Positions 262 to 62,610 of a DNA stretch of 64,000 bases are shown here, piece after piece; the first letter of the stretch is position 1; each line of letters begins with the position of its first letter. The notes under the pieces were generated by a model. That model worked only from the letters and a program-made list of their open reading frames with translations, did no database searches and was not told the origin of the DNA. Source of the DNA: Patescibacteria group bacterium (GTDB lineage Bacteria > Patescibacteriota > Minisyncoccia > Phycocordibacterales > BOKC01); assembly GCA_038062955.1 (NCBI GenBank), contig JBBTWE010000001.1, positions 101,411 through 165,410 of the forward strand. The letters run 5' to 3'. The position numbers and the translations under genes are program-made.

Positions 262-357
262 ATTTTTTTCTTATAATTTAATAAATCAAAAAAGTATTGC
301 TAAATGGCAATACTTTTTTGATTTCATTTCATACTGTTTCGGATAGAACTTTCAGAT

Positions 358-377
358 TCCTGCCTGCCGGCAGGCAG
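358..377. repeat. 20-bp perfect palindrome CCTGCCTGCCGGCAGGCAGG (family R1)
   Basis: Read directly; GC-rich palindrome in AT-rich DNA. Related copies at 4979, 7944 and 61990, all at gene ends. Confidence 0.85.
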
Positions 378-400
378 GTGAGACAAGTTTGTTGGAAAAA

Positions 401-516
401 CCGTGTCAGAAATTTTATATAGCACCTCATTTTTATTTTGCTCACGCAAAACAAAACATGAGGCGTAATTTTTGAAGGGCAAAAATTAACTTCGTGATAA
501 AAAATCTTCTGACATG
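401..516 (-). repeat. 115-bp repeat element (family R2), inverted copy of 6378..6492
   Basis: Reverse complement matches 6378..6492 with about 3 mismatches in 112 nt. Contains internal hairpin CCTCAT...ATGAGG and ATTTTTGCCCTTCAAAAAT core. Confidence 0.85.
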
Positions 517-535
517 ATTTTTGAAGAGCAAAAAT

Positions 536-620
536 CAGAACCGTACCGAAATGTACTCCTTTGTACATTGAGGGAGGCTCGGAGCGAAGTAACGATGAGA
601 TGTGTCGGATATGAGAGTTC
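536..620 (+). repeat. structured repeat / candidate ncRNA family R3, copy C
   Basis: Shares ACCGTACCGA, hairpin, TTGAGGGAGGCTCGGAGCGAAG, AACGA, CGGATATGAGAGTT with copies at 24911, 48941 and 62486. Hairpin stem differs (TGTAC/GTACA versus CGTATT/AATACG) with compensation. Confidence 0.5.
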
Positions 621-623
621 TAC

Positions 624-1544
624 CTATTTGGCGTGCAAGTACATATATATATCTTCCAATGCCTTCACCCCATCTCCCGCAGCAATATTGTTTTGGTGAT
701 ATAAAATATCAGTGCAATCTCCAGCCGCCCAAACTCCTTTTACACTTGTTTGCTGATTTTTAGTATCGATTGGAATTCTTTTGTATTGGTCTAGTTTAAC
801 TAAATTTGCCACATAATCTGTATTAGGAACTAAACCGATTTCTACGAATATTCCTTCAGTGGGGAGCTCGGTAATTTTTCCAGTATTTGCATCCTTGATA
901 ACAATCGATTTCACAAACTTATCACCCTTAACTTCCAAAGTCTCGATATTCTTCAGAGCTTTCATTTTAGGATTCTTGAGGACTTTTTCAACAGTAACAG
1001 GATCAGCTCTAAACTCCGCGCTTCTATGAATCAATGTAACGCTTTTGGCATACGCTAAAAGCTGGGCGGCAGTTTCAAAACCGGCATTGCCCCCTCCAAT
1101 TACAACAGTGTCTTTGTCAGCAAAAAGAGGACCATCGCACGAAGCGCAGTAAGTAATGCCTTTGTTTTCAAACACGTCGGCCCCCTTGGCTTCTAATTGC
1201 CTACGCTTGCTACCTGTCGCAATAAGGACAGTTTTTGCGCTATATTCTCCTTTGTCGGTCTTTACTGCAAAATTTTCTCCAGCTTTGATAATTGATATTG
1301 CTTTTTCTCCTTCTTTTATGAAGACGGTATCTGCAGAGTAGGCCTTGAGGTGTTTTTTTAAATTCTCGGCTAGTTCTAGGCCTGATAGAGAAACTGTTCC
1401 AATCCAATTTTGGACATCTAAAGAAACAGAGCTTTGGCTATTAAAATCAAAGGTTATAAAAACAGTCTTAAGTTTTTTTCTAGCGGCGTAAACTCCAGCG
1501 GCAACACCCGCTGGGCCACCACCAATAATAGCTAAGTCGTACAT
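624..1544 (-). CDS. trxB: thioredoxin-disulfide reductase
   Basis: GGGPAG FAD motif, redox CxxC (CASCDG), second GGGN NADPH motif; 306 aa. Confidence 0.9.
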   Translation of the reverse strand: MYDLAIIGGGPAGVAAGVYAARKKLKTVFITFDFNSQSSVSLDVQNWIGTVSLSGLELAENLKKHLKAYSADTVFIKEGEKAISIIKAGENFAVKTDKGEYSAKTVLIATGSKRRQLEAKGADVFENKGITYCASCDGPLFADKDTVVIGGGNAGFETAAQLLAYAKSVTLIHRSAEFRADPVTVEKVLKNPKMKALKNIETLEVKGDKFVKSIVIKDANTGKITELPTEGIFVEIGLVPNTDYVANLVKLDQYKRIPIDTKNQQTSVKGVWAAGDCTDILYHQNNIAAGDGVKALEDIYMYLHAK

Positions 1545-1559
1545 ATGTATTAGTCTTGA

Positions 1560-2711
1560 TTATTTTTTATTGCGTCTTAAAAACGCTGGTACTACACCCC
1601 AATCATCTTCCTCATCAGCTCCTAGAGGGGTTTTTTTCTCTTCACCTGCTTCTATCACTTCTTTCTTGAATTCAGGTAGAGTGTTGTATATTTTTCCTTT
1701 TTCTACTACGCTCTCTTTCTTTTCCACATTTTGGAACAAAGATTTTTTCAGAACATTTTCAGGAAATCCTGTCGCAATTACTGTGATTTTTATTTCATTT
1801 TTCTTCAACTTTTCATCTCTTACTGTACCGAAAATAATTTTTGCATTTGGATCAACAGATTCTGTAATAATCTTGGCTGCTTCTTGAATTTCATGCATTG
1901 TCAGGTCGTTTCCACCAGCAATCGAGAAGAGAACACCTTTGGCGCCATTTACGGAAAGTTCTAGAAGTGGGGAATTGATGGCCGCCTTCGCCGCTTCTTC
2001 CGCTCTTTTTTCACCAGTTGCTGAACCTGTTCCCATGAGAGCAGGGCCCGCATTTTCCATAATAGCCTTGATGTCGGCAAAGTCCACGTTGATGACTCCG
2101 GGGGTGGTTATAAGATCAGAGATACCTTCCACGGCTTGTTTCAAAACGTCATCACACATAGCGAAAGCATCTTTAGCTGTCGTTTCTTTGCTGACGGTAA
2201 CGAGTAGACGATCGTTTGGAATGACAATTATTGCGTCCACCGCATTGCGTAACTCTGCGAGTCCAAGCTCGGCCAATTTATTTCTTTGTTGTCCTTCGAA
2301 AAAGAACGGTCTGGTTACAACTCCAACAGTGAGTGCTCCAAGCTCACGGGCAATTTGAGCAACACGAGGAGCGGCACCTGTGCAAGTTCCGCCTCCCATT
2401 CCACCAGCGATGAATACCATGTCGGCGCCCTTGATTGCTTCCTGAATTTCTTCTTGAGTTTCTTCCACCGCTTTTTTACCAAGTTCCGGATTCATGCCGG
2501 TTCCCAAGCCTCGGGTCAAGTTCTTTCCTATATGAATTTTTCGCTTAGCTAGTGTGTTGTGAAGGTCTTGCGCGTCTGTATTGATACCAATGAATTCAAC
2601 CCCCTTAACTTTGGAGTTAATCATATGATTTATAGCGTTTTTACCGGATCCTCCCACGCCCAATACTTTTATTCTGGCGAATGCTTCTACTTCAGGTTTT
2701 ATTTGAGGCAT
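1560..2711 (-). CDS. ftsZ: cell division GTPase FtsZ
   Basis: Tubulin signature GGGTGTGAAP, GVGGSGKNAINHM N-terminus; 383 aa. Confidence 0.95.
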   Translation of the reverse strand: MPQIKPEVEAFARIKVLGVGGSGKNAINHMINSKVKGVEFIGINTDAQDLHNTLAKRKIHIGKNLTRGLGTGMNPELGKKAVEETQEEIQEAIKGADMVFIAGGMGGGTCTGAAPRVAQIARELGALTVGVVTRPFFFEGQQRNKLAELGLAELRNAVDAIIVIPNDRLLVTVSKETTAKDAFAMCDDVLKQAVEGISDLITTPGVINVDFADIKAIMENAGPALMGTGSATGEKRAEEAAKAAINSPLLELSVNGAKGVLFSIAGGNDLTMHEIQEAAKIITESVDPNAKIIFGTVRDEKLKKNEIKITVIATGFPENVLKKSLFQNVEKKESVVEKGKIYNTLPEFKKEVIEAGEEKKTPLGADEEDDWGVVPAFLRRNKK

Positions 2712-2912
2712 ATATTTTAATGCTATATGTTTTTAAAAATTAAAAAAGAGTTCGATCAAGAGAAGAACATGCGTGTGTCTACACTAATATATCAAAAAAA
2801 GTTTTAAAAACAAGCCCCAACGGAAACTTTTTTCCCCGCATCTAATATAATCACGGTAGTGCCTTGCTAGCTTCAATGCTGAATAACACTAGCGAAATAG
2901 TCTCATTTTGAA

Positions 2913-4091
2913 TTAAGGCCAAAATTGTTTAAAAAATATCCTTATTTTTCCAGTGGTTTTTTTTACAAAATACTTTAAATATGGCTCTTGGTCTTGAGCC
3001 CCTAAACCTAATAAGCAAAGTCCATAAACTGCTGACCAAGAAGAATCCTTGATTACATTATTTTTTGTATTTTCATTGGAGATCGTTCCAATTTTTGCCG
3101 GAAGTTTTAAGAATGTTTTGGCAAAATTTTCAATATCAACGATGCCGCTTCCTCCGCCAGTAAAGATAATTCCGGCTGGCAGTATGCCGTTCCTCCCAAT
3201 TTTTTTCAGATGAGATTCTATGGTATCGAATATGTCTTCGAGTCTGGCTTCAATAATTTCTTCAACTTTTTTTCTTGGATAAGTCGCAATGGTTAATGCG
3301 CCAAGTTTTACGTGTTCAGCTTCGTCTAAGGAAATTTTAAGTCCCAAAGCAATATCGTTTGTTATGTTGTTTGAACCAGTAGGGAAGACTTCGACGGAAA
3401 TTGGAATATTGTTTTCGTAAATCACAGTAGAGAGAGTTTCTCCGCCTATATTGATTAGAATACAACCCGCTCTTTTTTGTTGTTTGGAAAGCAAAATCAA
3501 ACTTGAAGCTATCGGATTTGCCACAGCGTCTATGACGTCAACACCTAATTCTTCCAATACTTTCATCAAATCATTCAAATGTTTTTCTAAAACAGTCACG
3601 AAAAGACACTTCATTTCAAGCTTACTCCCTTTCATACCTATAGGACTTCCGATAACAGTTTTGCCATCCAATTTATAAGAGATTGGAATTGTGTGTAAGA
3701 TTTCTCTGTTTAAAGAAGCAGAGCTAGGTATATTGTTTTGGCACTCCGTGATTAATTTTTCTAAATCTATCTCACCCACTTCAAGATCGGCGCGAGATAT
3801 TATGACTTCTGCAGAGGAAGAAACACTGCCTAACCCCGTGCTACCGACAGAGAGCATGACTTCTTTTATTTTTGAGCCTATACTTTTTTCTGCCGCTCGG
3901 AGCGCTTTTCCTACACATTTTGAAACGGCCTCTTTTTCTGTTATGCAACCATGTCGAAGACCTCTGGATTCAGAGAGCCCAAAACCGATCATCTTTGGTA
4001 CAGGACGTTCACCTTCAATCAAGGATTCAGCAACGCCTACTCGAATAAATTGAGTACCAATATCGATGCTAGCAACAAAATTCCTGCTCAT
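2913..4091 (-). CDS. ftsA: cell division protein FtsA (actin-like ATPase)
   Basis: N-terminal IDIGT actin-fold motif, 392 aa, immediately upstream of ftsZ on the same strand. Confidence 0.9.
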   Translation of the reverse strand: MSRNFVASIDIGTQFIRVGVAESLIEGERPVPKMIGFGLSESRGLRHGCITEKEAVSKCVGKALRAAEKSIGSKIKEVMLSVGSTGLGSVSSSAEVIISRADLEVGEIDLEKLITECQNNIPSSASLNREILHTIPISYKLDGKTVIGSPIGMKGSKLEMKCLFVTVLEKHLNDLMKVLEELGVDVIDAVANPIASSLILLSKQQKRAGCILINIGGETLSTVIYENNIPISVEVFPTGSNNITNDIALGLKISLDEAEHVKLGALTIATYPRKKVEEIIEARLEDIFDTIESHLKKIGRNGILPAGIIFTGGGSGIVDIENFAKTFLKLPAKIGTISNENTKNNVIKDSSWSAVYGLCLLGLGAQDQEPYLKYFVKKTTGKIRIFFKQFWP

Positions 4092-4213
4092 AGAGCATAA
4101 ATTATATCATGAAAAAATTGATTCAAGATATAAGATTCACGATTCAAGAAAGAAATTTGAGATTTCCTGTTGTTATTTTTTTTCCTATCGCCTAATGCCT
4201 GGTTTCCCAAAGC

Positions 4214-4630
4214 CTAATTCTTAAAGAATTGCTCAAGTTCTGGAGGGATTTTAATATCAAAATCTTCCAAGAATTTTTTTTCCTGGTCCGACATTCCTTT
4301 TCCATGATCCAAACCTTTTAGATGTAAAAGTCCATGAATAAATATAAAAACAAAATAGGATTGATAGCTTAATTTAATATTTTTCGCTTCTTCCTCGATC
4401 TTTGAGAGATCCATAAAGATTTCACCGGCTGTTTCTCCAAGCGGAAAACTCAAAACATTTGTTGGATGGTTTTTGTTGCGATATTTATTATTTAAATCTT
4501 GAGATAGCGTATTTTCAGCAAAAACCACACTTAATTCATAATCTTGTCCGACAATTTTATTTTTAATTTTTTTAAGGAATAAGCCGCTAGCAGGCGGCTT
4601 AACCTCGGTTTTATTTACAATATCAAACAT
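4214..4630 (-). CDS. ybeY: rRNA maturation endoribonuclease YbeY
   Basis: HGLLHLKGLDH zinc-binding motif (H3xH5xH); 138 aa. Confidence 0.85.
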   Translation of the reverse strand: MFDIVNKTEVKPPASGLFLKKIKNKIVGQDYELSVVFAENTLSQDLNNKYRNKNHPTNVLSFPLGETAGEIFMDLSKIEEEAKNIKLSYQSYFVFIFIHGLLHLKGLDHGKGMSDQEKKFLEDFDIKIPPELEQFFKN

Positions 4631-4641
4631 GTGTTAGTTTT

Positions 4642-4890
4642 CTACTTCGAGGAGTCGTTTCTTTTGTCCTGCATTTTGCCGAGCTTTATCAATCTGCTGA
4701 CTTCCTTTTTTCTTTCAATAACTTTCAAAGCTCGATTTTTCTTAGCTGGTTCCGATTTGTCTCTTTTAGTGTACCTCTCGGCGCGAGCTTTAGGCAAAAT
4801 ACCTGATCCTTGGACCCTTCTGGTAAACCTTTTTATGAGGCTGACATTGTTTTCAGAGCCTGTTTTTTGAACTTCAACGTTTACTGACAT
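4642..4890 (-). CDS. rpsU: 30S ribosomal protein S21
   Basis: Basic 82-aa protein with S21 N-terminal signature NNVSLIKRFTRRVQGSGI. Confidence 0.85.
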   Translation of the reverse strand: MSVNVEVQKTGSENNVSLIKRFTRRVQGSGILPKARAERYTKRDKSEPAKKNRALKVIERKKEVSRLIKLGKMQDKRNDSSK

Positions 4891-4978
4891 AGGCTAATAG
4901 ACTAACATATATTGTTTAAACGTACAAATTTATTTCAACTTCTAATTAGGGTGTGGAAAAATATAGATTCAAGAAACA

Positions 4979-4997
4979 ATCTGCCTGCCGGCAGGGA
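4979..4997. repeat. R1 palindrome, truncated copy (CTGCCTGCCGGCAGGGA)
   Basis: Direct read; intergenic between hisS-like and rpsU. Confidence 0.6.
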
Positions 4998-5092
4998 TTC
5001 ATGATTTCATGGCTTCGCCAGATCCTGAGCAGCATGGACAAGAATAATTTTTTTTAATCTTGATTCCTGAATCTTGAATCATGCTTCTACTC

Positions 5093-6313
5093 TTATATCT
5101 TAAGTTTTCTCAAGTAGTTCACCAAATCACAAGAAGAAACCGTTTCTTGGACCCGAGTCTCGGTATTTCGGACAACAACTGATTGCTCCAACGCCTCTTT
5201 TTCTCCAATTATCAGGATATAAGGGAAATTCAAGTTTTCAGCTGTGGTGAGTTGTCCCATGAGTTTATCTTTTGTAAGAGAATGATAAATCGGAATTCGC
5301 GCTTTTCGGAGGGACTCGATGAGTGCAAGACATTTAGCTTTAGCCTTATTGCCAAACTGCACCAAAAAATACTTCGGTTTTATTTTTCTTATGTTTGTTT
5401 TTTTGACCTTAGCTATATTGTCTTTGATTGAAACGCTTAAGTACGGGATTTCTTTTCGGATGTGTAGTTTTCTTACAATATTGTGATGTCGGACACCCAC
5501 GGCTACGACGGCTTCGTCGGCCTTGATCTGAAAGATTGTCTGTGAGCAATATTGTTTGTTTGGAATCAAAGAATGATTTAAATCATAAGGAGTTTCGAAA
5601 AATTCCAAATATTCCAAAACTTCTTTAAAATGTTTTATTGCTTGTGGCGTCAAAAAATTCAAAGGTTTTGGCATGTTTGCCATCATTTCTTTATTCTCGT
5701 CTTCCAGATCTTTCTTTAAGATATCATTTGGTTCTTTCTTGATTATTTCGATAATGTCCTTGGGCAAGACTTCGGCATTTTTTTTGACGAAATTTGATAA
5801 TTCTTTTTCGAATTTTCCGAAAGATTCTTTGTCTCCAACGCTGTTTATCTCTATTTTTAAATTTTTTACTTCCTGATCTCTCAATATCGCTAGACTGGTC
5901 TTCAAAGCCAGAGCTTCAGCAACACTGCTTCCTGATCCAAGAATAGACAGATTTAAAAATGATTCGGAGTCATTTTTTTTATATTCTTCTTTGTCTCTGT
6001 AGCAAATTGAGAGGGGAAAAGGAAATGATCGGAAACCGCCTTCAATATAAGTTCGGAGCAGATATATTTTATTATTCATGCTATGTGAACGTTCAAGACC
6101 TTGATTTATTTTTTGGAGACATAAACCATTTTCAAAACTTTTAGACTGGAGGCAATCATCTTTGGAGGCTTGGGGTGTTTTTATTGGAATAAAACCGTAA
6201 AAAAAAGCGGTTTCTAAGGCCTTATCAATATTATAGAGGGAGAGATTATTAAGATTTTTATTCAAAGAAGATGATTTGTCTTTTGTAAGCATTGGAGATA
6301 GATAATCACTCAC
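5093..6313 (-). CDS. histidyl-tRNA synthetase-like protein (class II aaRS core plus HisRS-type anticodon-binding domain; catalytic motifs appear degenerate)
   Basis: C-terminal FPYILIIGEKEALEQSVVVRNTETR anticodon-binding domain. N-terminal and core are colinear with HisRS, but motif 2/3 positions read CYRDKEE...SESFLNL and AVGVRHHNIV instead of FRYERPQ..GRYRQF and AGGRYD. Confidence 0.55.
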   Translation of the reverse strand: MSDYLSPMLTKDKSSSLNKNLNNLSLYNIDKALETAFFYGFIPIKTPQASKDDCLQSKSFENGLCLQKINQGLERSHSMNNKIYLLRTYIEGGFRSFPFPLSICYRDKEEYKKNDSESFLNLSILGSGSSVAEALALKTSLAILRDQEVKNLKIEINSVGDKESFGKFEKELSNFVKKNAEVLPKDIIEIIKKEPNDILKKDLEDENKEMMANMPKPLNFLTPQAIKHFKEVLEYLEFFETPYDLNHSLIPNKQYCSQTIFQIKADEAVVAVGVRHHNIVRKLHIRKEIPYLSVSIKDNIAKVKKTNIRKIKPKYFLVQFGNKAKAKCLALIESLRKARIPIYHSLTKDKLMGQLTTAENLNFPYILIIGEKEALEQSVVVRNTETRVQETVSSCDLVNYLRKLKI

Positions 6314-6377
6314 ATGTTCTTTTTAAAAACGCGCATATTCGCGAGCTCACGGATGGCTGATTTCTGTACCACAGAAA

Positions 6378-6492
6378 TCATGTCGGAAGATTTTTTATCA
6401 CGAAGTTAATTTTTGCCCTTCAAAAATTACGCCTCATGTTTTGTTTTGTGTGAGCAAAATAAAAATGAGGTGCTATATAAAATTTCTGACTC
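6378..6492 (+). repeat. 115-bp repeat element (family R2), inverted partner of 401..516
   Basis: See 401..516; the ORF-track entry 6413..6697 overlaps it and is judged spurious. Confidence 0.85.
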
Positions 6493-6495
6493 GAC

Positions 6496-7077
6496 CTATT
6501 CCTCGTATCTACCAGGGAAAACTTTCAAACGGGAAAAGGGAATAAGCCTGACTAGCGGTCTTCCGACAATCAAATCTTCTTTGAGTGGTCCCCAAACGCG
6601 TGAATCTGAACTTGAGGCTCGGTTGTCGCCCATAACAAAGTACTCATCGTCTTCCAATGTAACCTCCATCGAATCATTTTTCGGATACAAGATGTAATCC
6701 TCCTTAAGTTTCAATCCCTTTGGATTTGCTTCGTTTATAATAGTAATTTCAGTGCCGTTTATCCTAACTGTCTCGCTTGGTAGGCCTATTATTCTTTTAA
6801 TAAAGTATTTTGAGCGATCTTTTGGGTAGTGGAAGATAATAATCTCGCCACGTTCTGGGTCTTTCAGTGTTTTATAGCTTATTTGGTCAACAATTAAATA
6901 TTCGCCAGGCAAAAACGTTGGAGTCATCGAGGCGCCGTTTACAATAAAGGGCTGCGCGACAAAATATCTAAATGGCACTACAACCAAGAAAGCAATTAAA
7001 ATAAATTTTAGGAGTTCTTTGAAAAATCCACCACTTTTTTTCTCCCCATTATCTAAATATTCATCTGTCATTGCCAT
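6496..7077 (-). CDS. lepB: signal peptidase I
   Basis: N-terminal TM, GASMTPT (Ser box), GDNRASSSDSRVWGP box; 193 aa. Confidence 0.85.
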   Translation of the reverse strand: MAMTDEYLDNGEKKSGGFFKELLKFILIAFLVVVPFRYFVAQPFIVNGASMTPTFLPGEYLIVDQISYKTLKDPERGEIIIFHYPKDRSKYFIKRIIGLPSETVRINGTEITIINEANPKGLKLKEDYILYPKNDSMEVTLEDDEYFVMGDNRASSSDSRVWGPLKEDLIVGRPLVRLIPFSRLKVFPGRYEE

Positions 7078-7336
7078 TTTCCAAGTATTTTATACAATTA
7101 GAATATCAATAGCAAGAGCAACCACTTATTTTGTTTGTTTTGTCACAAGATTAATGATTTTTTTGAATAAAATAAGTAAAATTTTCAATTCACAATGACC
7201 AATTCCCAATGAATTATCAAATTTCAATTGTTTGATAATTGAGATATGTAGCTTGATTGATAATTGTGCATTGATAATTGATAATTAGATTCTAAATATA
7301 AGTATAAGATTATAAATATATAAGATATCTGTAAAA

Positions 7337-7933: not shown

Positions 7934-7943
7934 TAGATTCAAC

Positions 7944-7964
7944 CTGCCTGCCGGCAGGCAAGGA
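7944..7964. repeat. R1 palindrome copy (CCTGCCTGCCGGCAGGCAAGG)
   Basis: Direct read; lies between convergent pth and rpsA. Confidence 0.8.
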
Positions 7965-10477: not shown

Positions 10478-10607
10478 TAAATCAATAATTTATTTTGTGA
10501 GTTTATTGGGAATAGAATTTTCAATTTTCAATGACCAATTTTCATTTGATAATTGGGGTTTGAATCTTGATTGATAATTGGACATTGGTAATTGATAATT
10601 TGATCTT

Positions 10608-21423: not shown

Positions 21424-21495
21424 GGCCTAGTGGCGAAGGGGTAACGCGGCTCTCTGCAAAAGAGTTATGCGCCGGTTCGAGTCCGGCCTAGGCCT
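21424..21495 (+). tRNA. tRNA-Cys (GCA)
   Basis: Acceptor GGCCTAG/CTAGGCC, anticodon loop CTGCAAA, T-loop TTCGAGT, discriminator U; no encoded CCA. Confidence 0.85.
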
Positions 21496-21550
21496 CAATA
21501 TTCATTTCACAAATCACTTAATTTCTTGTATCCTAAAAAGCTAAGAGTTT

Positions 21551-21632
21551 GCCCGGGTGGCGTAATTGGTAGCCGCACTTGACTTAAGATCAAGCGCCGT
21601 AAGGCTTGCGAGTTCGAGTCTCGCCCCGGGCA
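21551..21632 (+). tRNA. tRNA-Leu (TAA)
   Basis: Acceptor GCCCGGG/CCCGGGC, anticodon stem CTTGA/TCAAG, loop CTTAAGA, long variable arm, discriminator A. Confidence 0.85.
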
Positions 21633-21662
21633 CAAGTCATTTTATATAAAAATAAATAATAT

Positions 21663-21735
21663 CCGCCTGTAGCTCAGTTGGTAGAGCAGATCCCTCTTAA
21701 GGATAAGGTCGAAGGTTCGAATCCTTCCAGGCGGA
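21663..21735 (+). tRNA. tRNA-Lys (CTT)
   Basis: Acceptor CCGCCTG/CAGGCGG, D-arm GCTCAGTTGGTAGAGC, anticodon loop CTCTTAA, T-loop TTCGAAT. Confidence 0.85.
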
Positions 21736-21847
21736 CAAGAAAGCGTTATATGCTTTCGGGAAGGATTCGAAGCCCGATTGAGCTTATTTTATGATCCTGA
21801 TTTTATCGAAGGAGAAATAAAATAACCAATCGGGGTACTGAAACTGT

Positions 21848-21866
21848 AAGTTTCGAATCCTTCCAG
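21848..21866 (+). repeat. partial duplicate of tRNA-Lys 3' end (TTCGAATCCTTCCAGGCGGA)
   Basis: 19-20 nt identical to 21717..21736, located 110 bp downstream. Confidence 0.7.
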
Positions 21867-21907
21867 GCGGACCCGCAATTGAGAGATCGCGGAGCCATTC
21901 TAAATTT

Positions 21908-21991
21908 GCTGGGATGGTGAAATTGGTAGACACACCAGCCTTAGGAGCTGGTGCCTTAATCGGCATGGAGGTTCGAGTCCTCTTCCCAGCA
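21908..21991 (+). tRNA. tRNA-Leu (TAG)
   Basis: Acceptor GCTGGGA/TCCCAGC, anticodon stem CCAGC/GCTGG, loop CTTAGGA, long variable arm, discriminator A. Confidence 0.85.
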
Positions 21992-22149
21992 CAACAAAAG
22001 AAAAGCCGGCTTCAAGTCGGTATTTTCTTTTGTTGTAATCTGGATAAAAGACGAGAAGGCCGGATCGAAGTAGCTATATGAGCGAAGCGAAAAGCTACGA
22101 GTGAGGCGGGGTCGAGCAAAATTTTTTTTAAAAAATTTATGTGTGACCG

Positions 22150-22168
22150 AGTCCTCTTCCCAGCACAA
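22150..22168 (+). repeat. duplicate of tRNA-Leu(TAG) 3' end (GAGTCCTCTTCCCAGCACA) followed by perfect hairpin
   Basis: 19 nt identical to 21976..21994; then ATAATAAAAATCCTGCA-CAAA-CTGCAGGATTTTTATTAT hairpin. Confidence 0.7.
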
Positions 22169-22245
22169 TAATAAAAATCCTGCACAAACTGCAGGATTTT
22201 TATTATTGTGCTGGAAGAAGGTAAGCTTCTTTACTTTATTTTTCT

Positions 22246-24780: not shown

Positions 24781-24910
24781 ATAAATGATTGAAATATTAT
24801 ACCCCAGATTAGTAAATACTACTTGGTAGTTTAGTAACATGGGGGAATTGAAATTAATTTCCTAGCATATACACATTGTGATATTATTTACTCAACTTAA
24901 AAATTTAGAA

Positions 24911-25020
24911 TTTTCAGATTCGGATGCAGATCAAGGCGCAAGCGAGAACCGTACCGAGACGTATTTAATAATACGTTGAGGGAGGCTCGGAGTGAAGCAA
25001 CGCAGAGATGCGCCGAATAT
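24911..25020 (+). repeat. structured repeat / candidate ncRNA family R3, copy A
   Basis: TGCAGATCAAGGCGCAAG...ACCGAGACGTATT-TAAT-AATACGTTGAGGGAGGCTCGGAGTGAAGCAACGCAGAGATGCGCCGAATATGG; GAGA tetraloop hairpin CGCA-GAGA-TGCG. Confidence 0.55.
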
Positions 25021-25831
25021 GGAAGTTCTTTATATACTTATGGAAGATTTAAGCAAAACCCAAATAATACTTTTAGGACTCCTCGTGAGCTTTGTAAGCT
25101 CTGTTGCTATTAGCATAATGACCTATTCGCTCTTAAGTGAAGCGCCCGCAACTATTACTCAAACAATAAATAGAGTGGTAGAGAGGACCATTGAGACAGT
25201 TGTGCCAGCAGAAAATAAGCCAGAAGTTATCACCAAGGAAGTTACTGTTGTTGTTAAAGAAGAAGATTTGGTTATAGACGCTATTAAGAAAAATGAAGGC
25301 AGTCTTGTCAGAATTCAAGAAATCATTAAAGGGGTTCCACCAAAATTTTCAGCCTTTGGTTTGGTTTTACATAAAGGAGGCCTGATTGCCACTTCAAAAA
25401 CTAATTTTCTGCCTAACGCGACATTTGAGGCAGTCTTGCCAGATAATTCAAAAGTAACTTTGAAAAAAATGTTTGCTCCCACTAAAAACTTTTCATTTTT
25501 TACCGTTGAGAATTCTGCCCAAAAAGAATTTGTAGGCGCATCGATGGGGGATTCTGATACTTTACAGCTTGGACAGACAGTTATTTCTATACGAGGGGTT
25601 GAACGCAACACTGTATCAATTGGCAGAATAAACGGACTCTTGCTGACTCCAGAAAATAGTGAAAATGCCACATCTTCCAGATATTCTCTTATTGAGAGTG
25701 ATGTCTTAAATGGGGAAGTTGGCAGTCCGGCTCTAAACCTAAACGGAGAACTCATTGGAATGAGTTCCGGCCAGCTCGGAAATTTTATTCCGATAAATCT
25801 TCTGAAATTAGAAATGCAAAATCTAATCTAG
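25019..25831 (+). CDS. membrane-anchored trypsin-like (S1C/HtrA-like) domain protein with substituted catalytic triad (likely pseudo-protease)
   Basis: [17 protein letters not shown] and [28 protein letters not shown] are colinear with HtrA ADSDALRVGD... and [26 protein letters not shown], but the GNSGG Ser box reads GEVGS and the His/Asp positions are also substituted. Confidence 0.5.
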   Translation: [270 protein letters not shown]

Positions 25832-25887
25832 GCACTATAAGCTTGCTTTTTTCATAGAAATCGTTTATAATACTGCTCTCTGAAATT

Positions 25888-25957
25888 GTTGATTTTTGCC
25901 CTTCAAAAATCACGTCGTAAGATTTTCTACAATGTAATTGTGGAAAATTTACGACGC
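25888..25957 (+). repeat. R2-related element (ATTTTTGCCCTTCAAAAATCACG plus 45-nt hairpin CGTCGTAAGATTTTCTACAA...TTGTGGAAAATTTACGACG)
   Basis: Shares core with 401..516 / 6378..6492; near-identical copy at 41083..41147 with compensatory loop change. Confidence 0.7.
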
Positions 25958-25991
25958 GGGTGTCGCTAAATATAAAAGTTCGAACACTTCA

Positions 25992-32369: not shown

Positions 32370-32541
32370 CAATGATCAATAAGAAAGTCTAAACGACTTT
32401 CGAATTGAATATCATTTCGAGAAAGATGGGGAATCGGAAGTCGGAGCGCGACGGCGCGAGGCGGGGTCGCGAAATTTTTCAGCAGAAAAATATTTGTGAT
32501 CTATTCCTCCATTGCGTGCATTTGGTGGATTTTAAAGTAAA

Positions 32542-32581
32542 AATAACATACTCACATACTTGGTAATGTGAAAATGTTATT
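32542..32581. repeat. 40-nt hairpin element R5 (AATAACATACTCACATACTTGGTAATGTGAAAATGTTATT)
   Basis: Direct read; near-identical copy at 37119..37164; the pair brackets 32597..37019. Confidence 0.8.
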
Positions 32582-32596
32582 GTAGGATTTGATTAA

Positions 32597-35050
32597 TTGA
32601 ATTATATGGAGTTGATAAGGAATTTCGATAAAATAAGCAAAAATGACGCTGGAATTGCTGGTGGAAAAGGGGCGTCTCTTGGAGAAATGAGCCAAGCTGG
32701 GCTTCCTGTGCCACCTGGTTTTGTAATTCTCTCGGGATGTTTTGAACAGTTTCTCAAAGAAACTGATCTCTATCAGGAAATTGATTCTATTCTCCATAAG
32801 GTTAATCATAAAGAAATTCATACTGTCGAAGGAGCTTCTGAACAGATTCGAGAGCTTATTTTGAACGCAGAAATGCCAAAGGATATTTCCGTTGATATTC
32901 AAAAGAAATTTAAGAAACTTGATGCAAAATATGTAGCAGTGCGCTCGAGCGCAACAGCGGAGGACGGCAAGGATCATGCTTGGGCGGGACAACTCGAATC
33001 ATATTTGAATACGAGAGAAGCCGAGGTACTGGCAAAAGTAAAACTTTGTTGGTCTTCACTTTTTACCCCTCGGGCAATTTTCTACCGTTTCGAAAAAGGC
33101 TTACACTCAACAAAAATATCGGTGGCAGTTGTCATCCAAAAAATGGTGGAATCAGAATTTTCTGGCATTGCTTTCTCGGTCCATCCTGTTACTGAAGACT
33201 ATAATCAACTTATCATTGAAGCTGGTTTTGGTTTGGGAGAAGCGATTGTATCGGGCTCTGTTACACCAGACTCATATGTGGTAGAAAAGGAACCAAGAAA
33301 TATTTTGGATATAAACGTTTCAACTCAAGATCGTGCATTGTATCGATCAGAGAAATCTTTGGCCGAGCATGGTAATAATGAATGGAGAGATATTTCAGAA
33401 CCTCAAGCTTCATCTCAAGTTCTGACAACAGAACAGATTCTTGAACTTTCAGAAATTATTCTCAAAATCGAAAATCATTACGGTTTTCCGTGTGACATTG
33501 AATGGGCTTTTGAGAAAGGGAAGTTTTATATAACCCAAAGCAGACCGATTACGACACTTTCAAGTAATAAATCTTTAAAGAAAAAAATTCTTGCTGAAAA
33601 ATTCATTGAAGAGATTGGTAATCAAGAGCTTCGTCCACCTATCTACAATTCTTCTATGTTGGTGCATCAAAGTGGGTGGAATACATCTAAATATTTTGGA
33701 AAATACTATAAGTCACAAATTCCTTCTCCACTCTTTTTTCACACCAAAGGAAGTAGTGGGGTATTATATGCATCAACGGGGAAGGAGAAAGATCTTGTAA
33801 GTGAAGTTTTTCGCGAGTATTGGAAAAACGAGTCATATATTCATAATCGGTACGACATATTTAAAGATTTAACCAAAAAAATTGATGATATTTTTTTCAA
33901 GAAACTTACCTATAGCAATCTTTCGCGTTTAGCTGAAAAGCAGATCAATTCAATTGTTACCGAACTCGATGAAGTTACATGGAGCATGAATGCTGTGGCG
34001 TTCTATTCGATTTACTTTGATAAAAAAATTTGTGAGGAACTCGTGCAAGAGTTAGGTATTGGTATTTCCCAAGAACGTCTAGATTTTATCTGGGAAAAGG
34101 CTATTGTGGCGCCCGGTATTTCTTTTGAAAAACGAAGAAATCTTTATCTTTTGGAACTTATAGATCAGGGTAAGTCTTGGTCTGAGATAGGTGAATTATG
34201 CCAGTATTTTGATACCGGATATGACAAAATATTTTCTCCCACAGTTATCGAGGAAAAACTTCGCGAAAAATATTCTAGCTATACACCACAGAAAGCTTCT
34301 TCTGAAATTAATCTTGAAGATTTACAGACCGAGAAGAGATTAAAAGAAAACAAGAAATGGCTAGATTCGCTTTCAGATTCTGAGCGACGAATCGCACACT
34401 TCACACAATTTATAATTGAGTTACGTGATGAGCGAAAAGATTTCATTATGAAGGCAGTAACAGGATTCTATAAGATTGCGGAGCGTCTTTTTAAGGATGC
34501 TGGTATTCAAGAAGAATTCATGGTGTTTACAAGTATTCAAGAGCTCAAGAATGGTACGCAATATCTTAAGAAACATAAGGAAGAAATAATTTCTCGAGCC
34601 GAGAAAGGCGTTGTGTTGCTCGTACATTATAATAATGAACAGGAGTTGGAATATGGAACAGTCGAAGAAAATGAAAAATGTGTAAACGAATTTTTTCGCT
34701 CCCAGCAAGTTCACGATTTGAAATCCAACGAACTTCAAGGGCAGAGGGGATCATTTGGTACTGTCAAAGGCATTGCTCGAATTATTAAAGATTTATACGT
34801 AGATCGGGGAAGACTAAACCCTGGAGAAATACTTGTTACTGGTATGACACGGCCAGAATTTGTCCCTCTCATGAAAATTGCGGGTGGTATTGTTACAGAT
34901 GAAGGAGGTATTACATGCCATGCTGCTATAGTTTCTCGTGAACTTGGCATTCCTTGTGTGATTGGAACAAAAATTGCTACCCAAGTCTTGAAGGACGGAG
35001 ATATGGTGGAGATGGATGCCGATAATGGAATTGTAAAAATAATTAAATAA
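32597..35050 (+). CDS. PEP-utilising enzyme family protein: N-terminal PPDK_N ATP-grasp plus central domain plus C-terminal His-swivel mobile domain (PEP synthase / rifampin-phosphotransferase-like architecture, no TIM-barrel domain)
   Basis: [28 protein letters not shown] (PPDK_N); C-terminal [21 protein letters not shown] phospho-His swivel; 817 aa. Confidence 0.75.
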
Positions 35051-35058
35051 ATCTAAAC

Positions 35059-36381
35059 ATGTTAAAACCATCAGAATATACAAAAACAGTAAGAAGACCG
35101 TACCCACCACTACTTAGATCATTGATTTTGGCCGGGACTTCTAATCATAAACACCACAAACATTTTATGGAGGAAGTCTTTGTTTTTGAAGATTTTATTT
35201 CGGTTGATCATATCCTGTATTATGCTAAATCGACCCTTGAACGAAAGGCTAAAAACGTTCCATTTTATTGGATGAAGCCCGGAGTTTTAGAAAGAGTAAA
35301 AAATGAATTAGAGAAAAGAGAGAAAAAACTTATATCCGCTACTTCTCTAGAATTTAATGATTTTGCCAATGCTTATGAGGCCTATGTACCTGCCCTTGTA
35401 CTTATATTCTGTTGTGACGCGCCAGTAGCAAATGAGGTTCGAAAAAGATTATCAAAGAAAATTTCCGCAGAAGAGACAGAACACTTAATGAACGCTTTGA
35501 ATATTCCGCTACAAGATAATTACTATAAAAAAATTGACCACGATCTTTTAATGGCTGAAGATATTGATTCACACGTCAAAGAATATGAATGGATTAAATC
35601 TAGATATGGAGAAAAACATCCCTATACTAAAGAAGAAGCGTTGAAGAAATTAGAGGCATTAGACAAAGCTAGTTTCCTTGCTAAGTGGAATCATGAAAAA
35701 TCAGAATTAAAAGAGGTTATAAAAAAAGCAAAAGAAATTCTTGGCGGTGAAGATGCTGACATAATTGATTTTATGCAGTTTATAATTTTTTACCGCACTC
35801 AAAGAACTGATGTCTTAAACAGAGCTTCTTATCTTTTTATTCCAAAATTTGAAAAAATGGCGAAAGAGAGGGGCTTAAGTTATGTTGAATTATTACATTG
35901 CACTAAGGATGAAGTTGTTAATGATAATTTACCTTCACGAGAAGTTCTTAAGGAACGTATAAATGATTTCGTGATGTTGTTAGACAATGGAGTCGTTAGA
36001 TGTCTCTCGGGAGTTGCGACAGAGAAAATTAAGAAAATGTTTGCAGTTGAGACTTCTGAAATAAAAGAATTTAAGGGTGTTATTGCGTGTAAAGGTCAAG
36101 CGAAAGGAGTTGTAAGGGTTGTTCGAAACAGAAATGATTTTTCCAAAGTTCTTCCGGGTGATATTCTAGTTGCCAGCATGACTACACCAGACATGGTTCC
36201 GATAATGAATATTGCTTCTAGTTTTGTTACTGACGAAGGTGGTATTACTTGCCATGCGGCAATTGTATCCCGCGAACTCAAAAAACCTTGTATTATTGGT
36301 ACCAAAATCGCGACTCAGGTTTTAAAAGATGGGGACCTGGTGGAAGTAGATGCGAATAATGGAATTGTGAGAAAAATATAA
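35059..36381 (+). CDS. N-terminally truncated PEP-utilising enzyme paralog (central domain plus His-swivel, no ATP-grasp)
   Basis: C-terminal [44 protein letters not shown] nearly identical to upstream gene. [14 protein letters not shown] aligns with [14 protein letters not shown] of the 817-aa protein; 440 aa. Confidence 0.65.
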
Positions 36382-36388
36382 AAAAAAG

Positions 36389-37019: not shown

Positions 37020-37118
37020 CGCCCCCTCCGTATGGTTGTTGGTTTGAAAAGAACAGTACTATAAGAGTATAGCATAAGCTGTCATTATTGTCAACTAAAA
37101 GCCAAGATTTTGATATGC

Positions 37119-37164
37119 AAATAACATTCTCACATACTTGAGAATGTGAGAATGTTATTTTTTA
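37119..37164. repeat. 40-nt hairpin element R5, second copy (AATAACATTCTCACATACTTGAGAATGTGAGAATGTTATT plus T-run)
   Basis: Direct read; overlaps 3' end of miaA. Confidence 0.8.
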
Positions 37165-40050: not shown

Positions 40051-41043
40051 ATGGCATCTCAATTTTATAACAATTCAGTTTTTTGGATAGAAGTTGATAA
40101 GATCAAACCAAATCCTCATCAGCCACGAAAAGAGTTTGATGAAGGACAGCTTCGAGGTCTCGCGGACTCTATAAGGCAATATGGCGTGCTTCAGGCACTT
40201 GTCGTTACTCGCCAAGAAATTCCAAAAGAGGATGGTGGTCTTGCTGTTGAATATGAATTAGTTGCAGGAGAGAGAAGACTCCGAGCCTCAAAACTCGCAG
40301 GGCTTTCCCAAGTGCCGGTTTTAATTCGAGTTGTTGAAGATTCGGATTTGATGAAACTCGAGCTTGCGATTATCGAAAATATTCAAAGGGAAGACTTAAA
40401 TTCAGTCGACCGCGCTCGGGCATTTGCTCGTCTCGCAGAAGAATTCAAATTCAAACATCACCAGATTGCTGACAAGGTGGGAAAGAGTAGGGAATACGTT
40501 TCTAACAGTCTTCGAATTTTGTCCCTGCCAGAAGCGATTCTACAAGCCTTAAGCGAAGGAAAAATCACAGAAGGTCATACTAGACCTCTTCTCATGCTAA
40601 TCGATAGGCCGGCGGAACAAGACACATTGTTTAAAGAAATCGTGGCGAGACAACTTACAGTGCGTGAAGCTGAAGCAATTTCTCGTCGTATTGCTTTTGA
40701 TAAGATTCGCAAAAAAGATATAGATCCTTTGACTCAAGCGATTGAACAAGAGTTAAGTAGTACTTTAGGAACCAGAGTCCACATTGAGAGAGGGGAGAAT
40801 GGCGGCAAAATTTCCATTGATTTCTTTTCTGAAGATGAGCTTGATGGAATTTTAAATGTGATTCAGAAAGAAAAAAGCGAGAAAGTTAAAAGTTTAGAAC
40901 AAGCTAGAGACGCGCAGAAAGCAGAGCTTTCCGATGCGCCAGTGATTCTTACTTCCGAAACAGCTCTATTAGACGATCGCTCAAAAGAAGAGAAAGAGGA
41001 GAGTGATGAGGAGTTGTATTCTATAAAAAACTTTTCCATATAG
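40051..41043 (+). CDS. parB: chromosome partitioning protein ParB/Spo0J
   Basis: ParB box GERRLRAS, HTH region, 330 aa with acidic C-terminus. Confidence 0.9.
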   Translation: MASQFYNNSVFWIEVDKIKPNPHQPRKEFDEGQLRGLADSIRQYGVLQALVVTRQEIPKEDGGLAVEYELVAGERRLRASKLAGLSQVPVLIRVVEDSDLMKLELAIIENIQREDLNSVDRARAFARLAEEFKFKHHQIADKVGKSREYVSNSLRILSLPEAILQALSEGKITEGHTRPLLMLIDRPAEQDTLFKEIVARQLTVREAEAISRRIAFDKIRKKDIDPLTQAIEQELSSTLGTRVHIERGENGGKISIDFFSEDELDGILNVIQKEKSEKVKSLEQARDAQKAELSDAPVILTSETALLDDRSKEEKEESDEELYSIKNFSI

Positions 41044-41082
41044 AACTTCCAAATTCAGCGCATCCCATCGTTGCTCGCGCCT

Positions 41083-41147
41083 GATTTTTGCCATTCAAAA
41101 ATCATGTCGTAAGATTTTCTACAACATAGTTGTGGAAAATTTACGAC
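41083..41147 (+). repeat. R2-related element (copy of 25888..25957)
   Basis: GATTTTTGCCATTCAAAAATCATGTCGTAAGATTTTCTACAACATAGTTGTGGAAAATTTACGAC. Confidence 0.7.
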
Positions 41148-41394
41148 TGATCTGCATCCAAATTTGAAAGTTCTAATAAAAAAAGAGCCTTGTGAAATGA
41201 ATCTCACAAAAGGCTCTGTTACTCTATCTCTTTGGGTTCATTGAGTACGGTTAGAACCCCGAAGATAACCGCCAAAAAGACCAATAAGGTCATCCTTGTC
41301 ATGTTGTTGTCGTTAGCCGACACTATGGCGGAAGCGCCGCACAAAATGCATAGACCAAAGGAAATATTGGCCGAGAGATTGGATGGCACAGATC

Positions 41395-45991: not shown

Positions 45992-46969
45992 TATAATTTT
46001 TGTCAATAGGAAATTTGCACACTTATCCCTTGACAACAAAACAGCCATTTGCTAAGATGGATGTATGGCAAAAGAAACCAAATATTCAATAAGAGATTTA
46101 AAGAGGGATTTCCCTACAGACGAAGCCTGTTTAGCCTTGATATTTGATACCCTACATAGCCGTAAATGCTCATGTGGAGGCGAATACAAGCAAGTTAAAG
46201 GCCGTAAGCAGTTCTACTGCTCTAATTGCCGTTATCAAATAGCCCCTACTGCAAATACAATCTTCAATAAGTCAGATACTCCACTATCTTTGTGGTTTCA
46301 TGCAATCTTTATATTCTCAAACGCTAAGAGCGGTATTTCCGCAAAAGAAATGGAAAGACAGCTCGGTGTTACCTACAAGTGTGCTTGGAGGATTCTTTCT
46401 ATGATTAGAAAGTCCTTAAAGCAAGACAACACCAAACTTAAAGGCGAAGTCGAGATAGATACTGGTTTCTTTGGGGGTAAAGGATATGGTGGAGAAAACA
46501 ACGAACGATTAAGTCATGTCATGACGAAGAAATCTATTGTTAACGTAGCCGTAGAAAGAGGTGGAAAGATTAAGGCAGAAATCATACCCGTAGCTTCTGC
46601 TCAAATCATGGAATCTTTTATCAAAAGAAACATTGAATCAAAAGCTACAAAGATATTCACTGATACCAGTGCTGTGTATGTGAGGAGCGATATAGTTTAC
46701 AAACGAGAATCTGTAAATCACTCTAAGAAAGAATACGTTAGAGGCAAAGCCCACGTTAATACTGTGGAGACATTTTTCTCGCATTTAAAGCGAAGTATAA
46801 AAGGTACATTCAAAGCTATTTCGAAACAGCATTTACAGTCTTACTTGGATGCTTTTGTCTTTCATTACAACAACCGAGGCAACGACAATCAGCGTTTCGG
46901 GGTTTTATTGAATACTTTATTGCGTGCTTAAGGATGGAGAGGAATTTGGATTTAGTCATAATTTTGTAT
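45992..46969 (+). mobile_element. IS1595-family insertion sequence (boundaries approximate; possible 8-bp direct repeat ATAATTTT)
   Basis: Single transposase ORF with its own TTGACA-17-TAAGAT promoter. ATAATTTT occurs just outside both ends. Terminal inverted repeats not confidently resolved. Confidence 0.55.
46065..46931 (+). CDS. IS1595-family (ISXO2-like) transposase
   Basis: N-terminal transposase zinc-ribbon (C..C...C..C), DDE_Tnp_IS1595-like core; 288 aa. Confidence 0.8.
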   Translation: MAKETKYSIRDLKRDFPTDEACLALIFDTLHSRKCSCGGEYKQVKGRKQFYCSNCRYQIAPTANTIFNKSDTPLSLWFHAIFIFSNAKSGISAKEMERQLGVTYKCAWRILSMIRKSLKQDNTKLKGEVEIDTGFFGGKGYGGENNERLSHVMTKKSIVNVAVERGGKIKAEIIPVASAQIMESFIKRNIESKATKIFTDTSAVYVRSDIVYKRESVNHSKKEYVRGKAHVNTVETFFSHLKRSIKGTFKAISKQHLQSYLDAFVFHYNNRGNDNQRFGVLLNTLLRA

Positions 46970-46987
46970 ATAATGGCATAAAAATCT

Positions 46988-47200: not shown

Positions 47201-47210
47201 GTAAATATTT

Positions 47211-48920: not shown

Positions 48921-48940
48921 AAATAGATTCTTTTATTACT

Positions 48941-49045
48941 AGAAATTTTGGTTGCAGATCAAGGCGCAAGTGAGGAGCGAACCGAGGCGTATTAGACAAT
49001 ACGACGAGGGAGCACCGGAGCGAAGCAACGCAGAGATGCGCCAAA
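48941..49045 (+). repeat. structured repeat / candidate ncRNA family R3, copy B
   Basis: TGCAGATCAAGGCGCAAGTGAGGAGCGAACCGAGGCGTATT-AGAC-AATACGACGAGGGAGCACCGGAGCGAAGCAACGCAGAGATGCGCC; about 85% identical to copy A with loop-only changes in hairpin 1. Confidence 0.55.
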
Positions 49046-49059
49046 AGGACTAGTAATAA

Positions 49060-61867: not shown

Positions 61868-61989
61868 GCTTATATAATATCAAATTAACAGTCATTCGCA
61901 CAATATATGTAAAACGAATGAGTTGTGGAAAAACAACAATCTCAACTCAAAAAATAATTTGGTTCTCTGAGATCTTTTCCCTTGCCTGC

Positions 61990-62425: not shown

Positions 62426-62485
62426 ATTACTCTCATTTTAAACTTTTTTTTTAAAATTAAAAATACATCTTATATACAATTTTAG

Positions 62486-62610
62486 AACTTTCAGATTCGA
62501 GGCTAGTTCTAGGCGATCCGCGAGCGTTCTGACCAAGCTGTATATACTGATATAGTGCATGGAAGAAGCGGAGCGGTCAACGACGAAATAGACCGAATAT
62601 GAGAGTTATA
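62486..62610 (+). repeat. R3-related element, copy D (diverged)
   Basis: Begins GAACTTTCAGATTCG like copy A and the 340 region; ends GGAGCGGTC-AACGACGAAATA-GACCGAATATGAGAGTT, paralleling copies A and C. Confidence 0.35.

Follow-up and report, generated by a model that had tools for sequence, protein, structure and literature searches.

Nested hairpin repeats make up an inverted pair around a cell-division gene block in a groundwater patescibacterium

Repetitive extragenic palindromic (REP) sequences and the REP doublets forming hairpins (REPINs) are short, extragenic, multicopy hairpins that show compensatory changes and are found mostly downstream of genes (PMC3733652, PMC3116915). Individual REPs are 20-40 nt in length and carry an unpaired GTAG or CGTC tag (PMC3733652). 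The repetitive intergenic consensus elements of enterobacteria (ERIC), or intergenic repeat units (IRU), are imperfect palindromes of ~127 bp in the Enterobacteriaceae, with general properties described in PMC3184786; like the Correia elements, they exert effects at the level of RNA (PMC3184786). Insertion sequences (IS) of the IS1397/ISKpn1 and IS621 types insert into REP loops (references listed in PMC3184786). Here we describe hairpin repeats in a 64,000-nt stretch of a Patescibacteria genome (the window), in which two copies in opposite orientation, the arms, flank a block of six genes that includes ftsZ and ftsA.

The window corresponds to bases 49657-113656 of the 277-kb contig ERZ1292632 (ENA) from Hainich groundwater well H43, and the named homologues of its proteins belong to the Paceibacterota/Parcubacteria. 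A Pfam scan covered 40 of the ~70 open reading frames (ORFs) of the window, and other genes in the window and on either side of it also have Pfam annotation. The ~83 kb of this genome that were read contain four sites of a ~70-nt module that we call M and five copies or remnants of a longer palindrome that we call the rod. The most economical description is of interacting repeat families, the closest functional analogues of which would be ERIC-type palindromes for the rods and REP/REPIN or IS200/IS605-type elements for M and its nested form, Mi. Searches of the literature on interspersed repeats in CPR/Patescibacteria (CPR, candidate phyla radiation) yielded no description of such elements, and this family of small hairpin-forming intergenic repeats of ultra-small groundwater bacteria is apparently undescribed.

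The arms and the M module family

The arms lie at positions 402-538 and 6357-6493 of the window. In a repeat search of the window they were 137 nt long, 93% complementary and separated by 5818 nt, which makes them by far its longest inverted pair; other, unrelated pairs reached only 30-40 nt at 73-77%. BLAST alignments covered 119 nt (97.5% identical) and 134 nt (94%). Pairwise alignment of a 113-nt core (405-513 vs 6490-6382, plus a few flanking bases) revealed two substitutions, a G/A in a loop and a T/C in a stem. The near-identical inverted repeats proposed here by an earlier sequence-only reading are thus real, and slightly longer than it had them. Beside the core lies a 23-nt hairpin (515-537 and 6380-6358) that differs between the arms at six positions and includes a compensatory pair, GATTTTTG..CAAAAATC in one arm vs GATTTCTG..CAGAAATC in the other, when the left arm is aligned with the reverse complement of the right. 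Both strands of the arms fold well.

Each arm is an M module with a second M-like module, Mi (68 nt), situated exactly in the triloop of its long hairpin. The left arm reads on the minus strand: the short hairpin of the outer M is at 515..537 (TGATTTTTG-CTCTT-CAAAAATCA, positions 4-26 of covariance model R1) and its long hairpin at 405..513 (GTCAGAAGATTTTTTATCAC ... ATATAAAATTTCTGAC). The latter encloses Mi at 422..489, which follows the CGAAG of the outer triloop and consists of a short hairpin (AATTTTTG-CCCTT-CAAAAATT) and a long hairpin (CCTCATG...CATGAGG). The right arm reads on the plus strand, with its outer short hairpin at 6358..6380 (TGATTTCTG-TACCA-CAGAAATCA, which departs from the left arm by a compensatory T>C / A>G change), its outer long hairpin at 6382..6490, ending 5 nt from the lepB stop codon (6496-6498), and its Mi at 6406..6473 with one mismatch to the left-arm Mi. 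This module-in-module build had been overlooked, as had the location of the left arm within a ~290-bp palindromic element. The ORFs at 329-568 (minus) and 6413-6697 (plus) that cross the arms were correctly judged spurious; they are not mirror images of each other as had been proposed, since they traverse the arms in different frames. The idea that both code for one peptide is ruled out by the absence of any shared peptide similarity.

The basic M unit comprises a 9-bp A/T hairpin, 1-3 nt, and an 18-20-bp hairpin with a bulged G and, usually, a C-GNA-G triloop. Two sequences in the window, 25888-25957 and 41083-41147, that had been noted as partial relatives of the arms turned out to be full basic M modules, scoring 83.9 and 84.5 bits with the covariance model; in the fold of each, a 9-bp A/T hairpin is immediately adjoined by one of ~20 bp. 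The first, M1 (25887..25959, plus strand), belongs to the 5' leader of clpB and lies downstream of TTGCTT-17-TATAAT, a sigma-70-like site. The second, M2 (41079-41151, plus strand), sits in a short rod frame (41041..41175) whose inverted terminal arms are TAGAACTTCCAAATTC / GAATTTGAAAGTTCTA; the parB stop codon lies on one side and a hairpin resembling an intrinsic terminator on the other.

A scan of metagenome contigs with the hairpin-junction pattern CARAAATCAYGTCNNAAGATTTT (exact, 23 nt) returned 62 loci, with ~50 clear M members from 21 assemblies. Members scored 70-99 bits with the covariance model, and Mi scored 50.2 bits as a complete M. In an alignment of 32 sequences the two helices were 98% paired and nine pairs had changed on both sides; slide controls of the helix partners brought pairing down to 36-54%. 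G·U pairs (26) were far in excess of A·C pairs (3; binomial p ~1e-5, our own calculation), showing that the structure is selected on one strand, the one on which the short hairpin comes first. The long hairpins ended in C-GNA-G loops (C-GAA-G, C-GTA-G or C-GGA-G) in 23 of the 32 sequences. A bulged G follows the 7-bp basal stem of M and also, in our own reading of Mi (which lies outside the search pattern), its 6-7-bp basal stem. The 5' flank usually ends in C, mostly as TTC, TGC or GCC but without any strict motif, and TCG is the usual sequence on the 3' side.

With hairpins of 23 and ~44 nt in many extragenic copies, M matches REPs in size and copy number. M resembles the REP/REPIN elements further in its compensatory changes, in its location, mostly downstream of genes, in being often nested or paired with other repeats and in its probable action as a folded single strand. 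It differs from them in being a fixed pair of two different hairpins and not a doublet of one REP. The motif YGTC at the foot of the long hairpin (TGTC in most copies) pairs with GAC in 32 of 32 sequences and is therefore not an unpaired tag, so M is not a canonical REP.

Searches of general collections gave no known counterpart. Rfam 15, applied to the window and to the isolated elements at gathering and permissive thresholds, passed only tRNAs; matches over the elements reached 10-19 bits vs thresholds of 35-204. Phage records had no BLAST match to the left composite, and viral contigs scanned with the junction pattern gave one chance match, inside a coding region. The short-hairpin 19-mer ATTTTTGAAKRGCAAAAAT was rejected as a family probe; in a genome collection it matched singly and by chance at over 117 places, in phyla unrelated to this one, and the hairpin alone is generic.

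Rods, nesting and turnover between relatives

The repeat family D4 (24919-25017, 48947-49045 and part of 511-609) is a ~125-nt rod-shaped palindrome. Complete rods, all on the plus strand, are found at 24903..25031 (D4, without M), at 48930..49059 between recR and dnaB, and at 62479..62610, the fourth window copy and a member of a divergent subfamily. The left arm lies within a further rod. On one side of it, a remnant at 538..622 (plus strand) retains the central hairpin ATGTAC..GTACAT and a terminal arm ending ..GAGAGTTCTA; it was recognized by the nhmmer rod profile (E 2.5e-13, 8.9e-15) and adjoins the stop codon of trxB (624-626). The other end of this rod, at 344..404 (plus strand; TAGAACTTTCAGATTC ... 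TGAGACAAGTTTGTTGGAAAAACCG), is interrupted at 359..378 by a perfect 20-nt palindrome, CCTGCCTGCCGGCAGGCAGG, that is absent from homologous rods at other loci. The whole left element thus runs from ~344 to 622, beginning two bases past the trxB stop codon. The other flank of the right arm (…GCGCATATTCGCGAGCTCAC) apparently resembles a rod-arm remnant, judging from its letters. The G+C-rich palindrome CCTGCCTGCCGGCAGGCAGG occurs in three spacers of the window (359-378, 7943-7962 and 61981-62000) and is not followed by a T run in any of them; a canonical terminator-like hairpin lies downstream of the copy at 7943.

The rod profile identified ~19 near-complete rods in the loci fetched from related genomes, with up to four on a contig of 11-14 kb. 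An alignment of 18 rods contained 33 pairs, 24 of them with compensatory changes. The internal loops are purine-rich (GCGCAAGCGAG / GGAGCGAAGCAACG), and most rods are bounded by TA/GAACTT…AAGTTC/TA (slashes mark the boundaries). The terminal arms are not fixed: three rods on contig L174 carry different, mutually compensating arms. Such covariation rules out rod ends that serve as fixed transposase-binding repeats.

Rods share with ERIC/IRU a length of ~125-130 nt, a long imperfect hairpin, a location in transcribed spacers in either orientation and flanking TA. Long rods with a ~66-70-nt insert at fixed internal sites provide another parallel, as long forms of ERIC with inserts are reportedly known. 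There is no sequence similarity between the two and they come from different phyla; the terminal stems of rods covary instead of being conserved, and the rod insert, M, forms a repeat family in its own right, with copies outside rods and copies nested in other copies.

Exactly one 66-nt unit, TGATTT…CTGAC, distinguishes rods that have M from those that lack it; the junction reads ...GATGC^TCGATTTTTCC vs ...GATGC(TGATTT..CTGAC)CCGGTTTTTCC. No duplication is seen at the M boundaries. Within rods M takes three or more positions, always in one relative orientation. The composite of M with Mi was found at four further distinct loci (L135, L160, L177 and L142/L185). BLAST of Mi showed these copies to be 93-94% identical to those of the window and always placed after the CGAAG of the outer triloop, in outer M modules that vary among composites (T or C short-hairpin variant, GTCAG or GTCGG, ATCAC or ATAAC). 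A stand-alone Mi was not found in 450 kb of loci, though these loci had been selected for M. Insertion at a defined loop or stem position of an existing palindromic repeat is also seen with IS1397/ISKpn1, IS621-type elements and nested transposable elements of the miniature inverted-repeat kind (MITEs). IS1397/ISKpn1 and IS621-type elements are full transposase-coding IS, whereas the unit inserted here is non-coding and 66-68 nt long.

Syntenic loci were obtained via HisS, ClpB and RelA homologues. In a sister species (ClpB 97% and RelA 84% identical; contigs L195-199 and L204-206, 126 kb including overlaps) no M was present, and the fetched loci contained one rod only. The site of rod 24903-25031 is empty there (…CTCAACTTA/TTATGGAAG…, the slash marking the rod position) between conserved flanks. 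The clpB leader has M1 in the window and other sequence plus a rod in the sister species, and the dnaB-recR spacer has a rod in the window and an unrelated palindrome in the sister species. The lepB-hisS spacer is 203 nt long with the right arm here, 150 nt of unrelated G+C-rich sequence in a relative with 88% HisS identity, and ~80 nt in relatives at 56-57%. In one relative the genes downstream of trxB overlap and no element is present; in a second, that region holds a sequence that is rod-like by eye but reaches a profile E of only 0.14-0.23. The absence of M at orthologous sister sites and of a rod between conserved flanks shows that the elements are gained and lost. Spacers are colonised repeatedly, and elements turn over faster than genes diverge. 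With a length below ~400 bp, no coding capacity, a long hairpin and insertion polymorphism, the elements are MITE-like in the broad sense.

Other, unrelated elements, palindromic or G+C-rich, occupy the same spacers in sister genomes: a GCGAAAGGCG/GTGAAG-hairpin element at L188 7932-8083 (lepB-hisS) and a GAATATACGAATTATACTAATA inverted-repeat element at L204 2925-3089 (dnaB-recR). Each lineage seems to have its own repeat repertoire.

Explanations for the repeats and for the inverted pair

We favour a reading in which the elements are non-autonomous, hairpin-dependent mobile repeats and the two arms were inserted independently in opposite orientations, and we put its probability at roughly 0.6. 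Each arm is one composite member of a repeat family that has spread through the spacers of a Paceibacteria/Parcubacteria clade of the CPR. M behaves as a discrete insertion module that enters other palindromes in a fixed orientation, either rods or a further M, at its triloop. The elements would be moved by an enzyme that works in trans and recognises a folded single strand, as in the systems of REP/REPIN and REP-associated tyrosine transposase (RAYT) or in elements derived from IS200/IS605. The arms would then descend from separate insertions, one in the rod of the trxB 3' spacer and the other in the lepB-hisS spacer, and their opposite orientation would be due to chance.

Recognition of a folded single strand is favoured by the strand-specific pairing, the orientation-specific nesting and the C-GNA-G triloops, which are a hallmark of very stable DNA mini-hairpins rather than of RNA. 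Miniature IS200/IS605 elements are likewise hairpin-based and strand-specific, insert in a specific orientation and have an extrahelical base; like them, M lacks terminal inverted repeats and an evident target duplication. Unlike theirs, the M hairpins are adjacent and not subterminal at two ends, and no conserved target tetranucleotide was found.

Several observations weigh against this reading. Neither a Y1/HUH transposase nor a RAYT was found in the ~83 kb read (the 40 Pfam-scanned window ORFs and the other annotated genes of window and flanks), from a genome whose largest known contig is 704 kb, and no mobilising enzyme was identified in these ~83 kb or in 669 kb of related loci. When the related loci were searched by tblastn with IS608 TnpA (an approximate sequence) and the TnpA of contig L127 as queries, a single IS200-like gene was obtained; this Y1 transposase gene, on L127 itself, is 0.3 kb from an M but has its own end hairpins, which are unrelated to M. 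No clean target-site signature marks the boundaries of M or of rods, and the filled and empty sites at 24903-25031 (TTA-insert-TTA vs TTATTA) give no unambiguous target duplication. Because the M copies were retrieved with an exact pattern, conservation of those 23 nt is by construction. The G·U pairs of rods are concentrated on the strand opposite to that favoured by M, in every composite, and opposite favoured strands are not simply explained by a single-strand model. Finally, M is sense to both neighbours in 20 of 25 tandem contexts and antisense in five (two-sided binomial p ~0.004), in counts that rest on our own crude ORF calls, and this sense bias, with the transcribed positions described below, fits an RNA-level role equally well.

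Such a role is a serious rival. M, Mi and rods would be structured RNA modules in mRNAs, maintained by selection for a host function, with their spread being secondary; candidate roles are 3'/5'-UTR (untranslated region) stabilisers, RNase III/E processing sites and protein-binding platforms. The elements lie within transcription units. The left element and M2 are located between a stop codon (trxB and parB, respectively) and a terminator-like hairpin, and M1 is located between its promoter-like site and the clpB start codon, so they are probably transcribed. Strong covariation, tolerance of G·U on one strand, 90-100% conservation of M between genomes that differ by more than 10% in protein sequence, and rod terminal stems that covary without any fixed terminal sequence also speak for this role. 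The right arm and ~20% of copies are antisense to the surrounding genes, however, and rods, which show no significant orientation bias (4:10), favour the opposite strand to M within one composite. The sister species lacks elements at the same sites, the triloops are of a type characteristic of stable DNA mini-hairpins rather than of RNA, and the elements have no promoter or terminator of their own and belong to no Rfam family. We consider an RNA-level function as the primary explanation possible rather than probable. It is compatible with mobility, as it is for ERIC and Correia elements.

Intrinsic termination was rejected as the function of M: the M stems are A/T-rich and followed by TCG with no T run, and canonical terminator-like hairpins are found downstream of the elements at ~289-319 and 41178-41220. 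A T-box-like motif (GGTGGAACCGCG / GGTGGTACCGCG) and a terminator hairpin were observed upstream of M on L127 (2001-2060) and on L141; on L127, M is inside the putative T-box leader and is followed by the thrS start codon.

A bolder and more doubtful proposal is that M and Mi are no ordinary selfish DNA and constitute a hairpin-loop-targeting insertion system, in which a folded single strand enters a C-GNA-G triloop, or defined positions of a palindrome, by means of an undescribed enzyme or an RNA-guided mechanism, or else that rods and M each represent a new class of functional structured RNA, the two being read from opposite strands. If true, a loop-targeting system would build nested structured elements in streamlined CPR genomes. 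Resemblance to integron attC sites, suggested by the hairpin with a bulged base, was rejected because the neighbours are housekeeping genes, the copies are not arrayed in one orientation and there is no integron integrase.

It is improbable that the elements are classical cut-and-paste MITEs of a DDE transposon, either an IS630/Tc1-like one that duplicates TA or an IS1595-like one resident in the window. The TA-bounded ends and ~125-nt length of most rods agree with reports on ERIC-type MITEs (PMC3184786), and the window does encode an IS1595-family (ISXO2-like) DDE transposase (46065-46931). That transposase belongs to an element at 46011-48210 with extra small ORFs and 30-nt terminal inverted repeats (46011-46040 / 48181-48210) unrelated to rods and M, which rules it out as the mobiliser. 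Only 41 nt separate recR and topA in the sister species, where the element is absent, and it is therefore a recent insertion. The one clean empty site lends no support to a TA target duplication by rods, M has no terminal inverted repeats, and strand-specific G·U pairing is unexpected if double-stranded DNA is recognised. Rods and M are not classical MITEs, given terminal repeats that vary and correspond to no IS, and the lack of a clear duplication.

The weakest explanation is that gene conversion maintains the identity of the arms and that they serve as substrates for recurrent homologous inversion of the block between them. Six genes, named from Pfam annotation and all on the minus strand, occupy the 5.8 kb between the arms: a trxB-like (thioredoxin-reductase-like) gene (624-1544), ftsZ (1560-2711), ftsA (2913-4091), ybeY (4214-4630), a gene for an 82-aa protein (4642-4890) and hisS (5093-6292); lepB is directly outside the right arm. 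The sequence-only reading had listed the same genes and strand, with rpsU in fifth place. The list was borne out except that rpsU can be given only as the 82-aa protein, which has no Pfam match and looks S21-like from its residues alone.

Both arms are present in several independent Hainich assemblies, and other assemblies break exactly at them (contig L004 ends at 6386 and L007 at 511, and contigs L008 and L202 are the stretch between the arms); the repeat is thus not an assembly artefact. Short-read assemblers usually break contigs at repeats. The arm-crossing contigs (L001/L005, L002/L006, L003 and L007) all have the orientation of the window. Relatives with 56-57% HisS identity keep the order lepB-hisS-82aa-ybeY-ftsA-ftsZ-trxB with a convergent CAP gene after it, and the relative at 88% has the same order up to ftsA, where its contig ends. 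The arrangement in the window is therefore ancestral and the block has not been inverted. A programmed inversion switch finds no support in this single orientation, which was scored on assembled contigs, minority isomers being a matter for reads; the only tyrosine recombinase seen is Xer-like (60902-61867) and 54 kb away. This Xer-like recombinase gene (Phage_int_SAM_1 + Phage_integrase) lies 0.1 kb from a GC palindrome and 0.6 kb from a rod.

Gene conversion, also suggested by the earlier reading, is not needed for the identity of the arms. The identical 113 nt are the family-wide conserved hairpin plus the near-invariant nested Mi, so identity falls at the short hairpin; two independent nested insertions into resident M copies would fit the comparison of the arms at least as well. 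Recurrent inversion is thus very improbable: it would draw on 113 inverted nt with two mismatches, a length that exceeds the minimum for RecA-dependent exchange, and on the breakage of short-read assemblies at both arms, which would leave minority isomers invisible, but it is opposed by the uniform orientation of the arm-crossing contigs, by identical gene order and orientation in three more distant relatives, by the alternative account of the sharp drop in identity and by the uncoupling of six essential genes from lepB-side transcription that it would entail. The arms are long enough for an occasional RecA-mediated inversion to be possible in principle; none has been seen or fixed in the assemblies or the relatives. 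The claim that did survive of the earlier reading's account of their origin is that the arms are copies of a REP-like or mobile element, as they belong to a dispersed REP/MITE-like family. On the reading as independently inserted mobile repeats, the inverted arrangement around cell-division genes looks incidental, a by-product of repeat spread.

Other features of the window and significance

Several other repeats were observed in the window. Direct repeats of reiterated TTGATAATTG motifs occur at 7177-7290 and 10513-10604, upstream of pth and near a 112-aa ORF/gyrA operon, and may be putative operator or binding-site arrays. A common ~54-nt palindrome (AACATTCTCACATACTTGAGAATGTGAGAATGTT) at 32528-32581 and 37106-37159, upstream of a PPDK-like gene and beside miaA, looks operator-like. 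A cluster of four tRNA genes (Cys, Leu, Lys and Leu; 21424-22221) is followed by a repeated segment of 30 nt (21974-22003 / 22148-22177), which shares sequence with the tRNA-Leu gene at the latter's 3' end, and by a palindrome with 32-nt arms (22153-22221). A tandem array of seven or eight small paralogues resembling type IV secretion system (T4SS) pilins (PF18895; 15495-18260), with repeated C-terminal transmembrane segments, is kept in relatives. At 32606-36381 the PEP-utilizers mobile domain of a PPDK_N/PEP-utilizers gene recurs in a second gene behind it, giving a direct repeat (34820-35051 / 36154-36385) of 71%.

CPR/Patescibacteria genomes are small, tightly packed and considered repeat-poor. 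In this clade, the ~83 kb read contain about one structured palindromic element per 9-10 kb. The elements belong to at least three interacting families, nest in one another at set positions and differ in their presence from one sister species to the next. Metagenome assemblies break precisely where they lie, spurious ORFs arise from them, and the inverted pair among them is not evidence of an invertible cell-division locus. Since they are situated in the untranslated regions of essential genes (trxB, hisS, clpB, parB and dnaB), they could affect mRNA fate. The covariance model and rod profile built here allow a census of the family, and identification of an enzyme that recognises M as a folded strand would establish the way in which elements of this kind move within an uncultured phylum.

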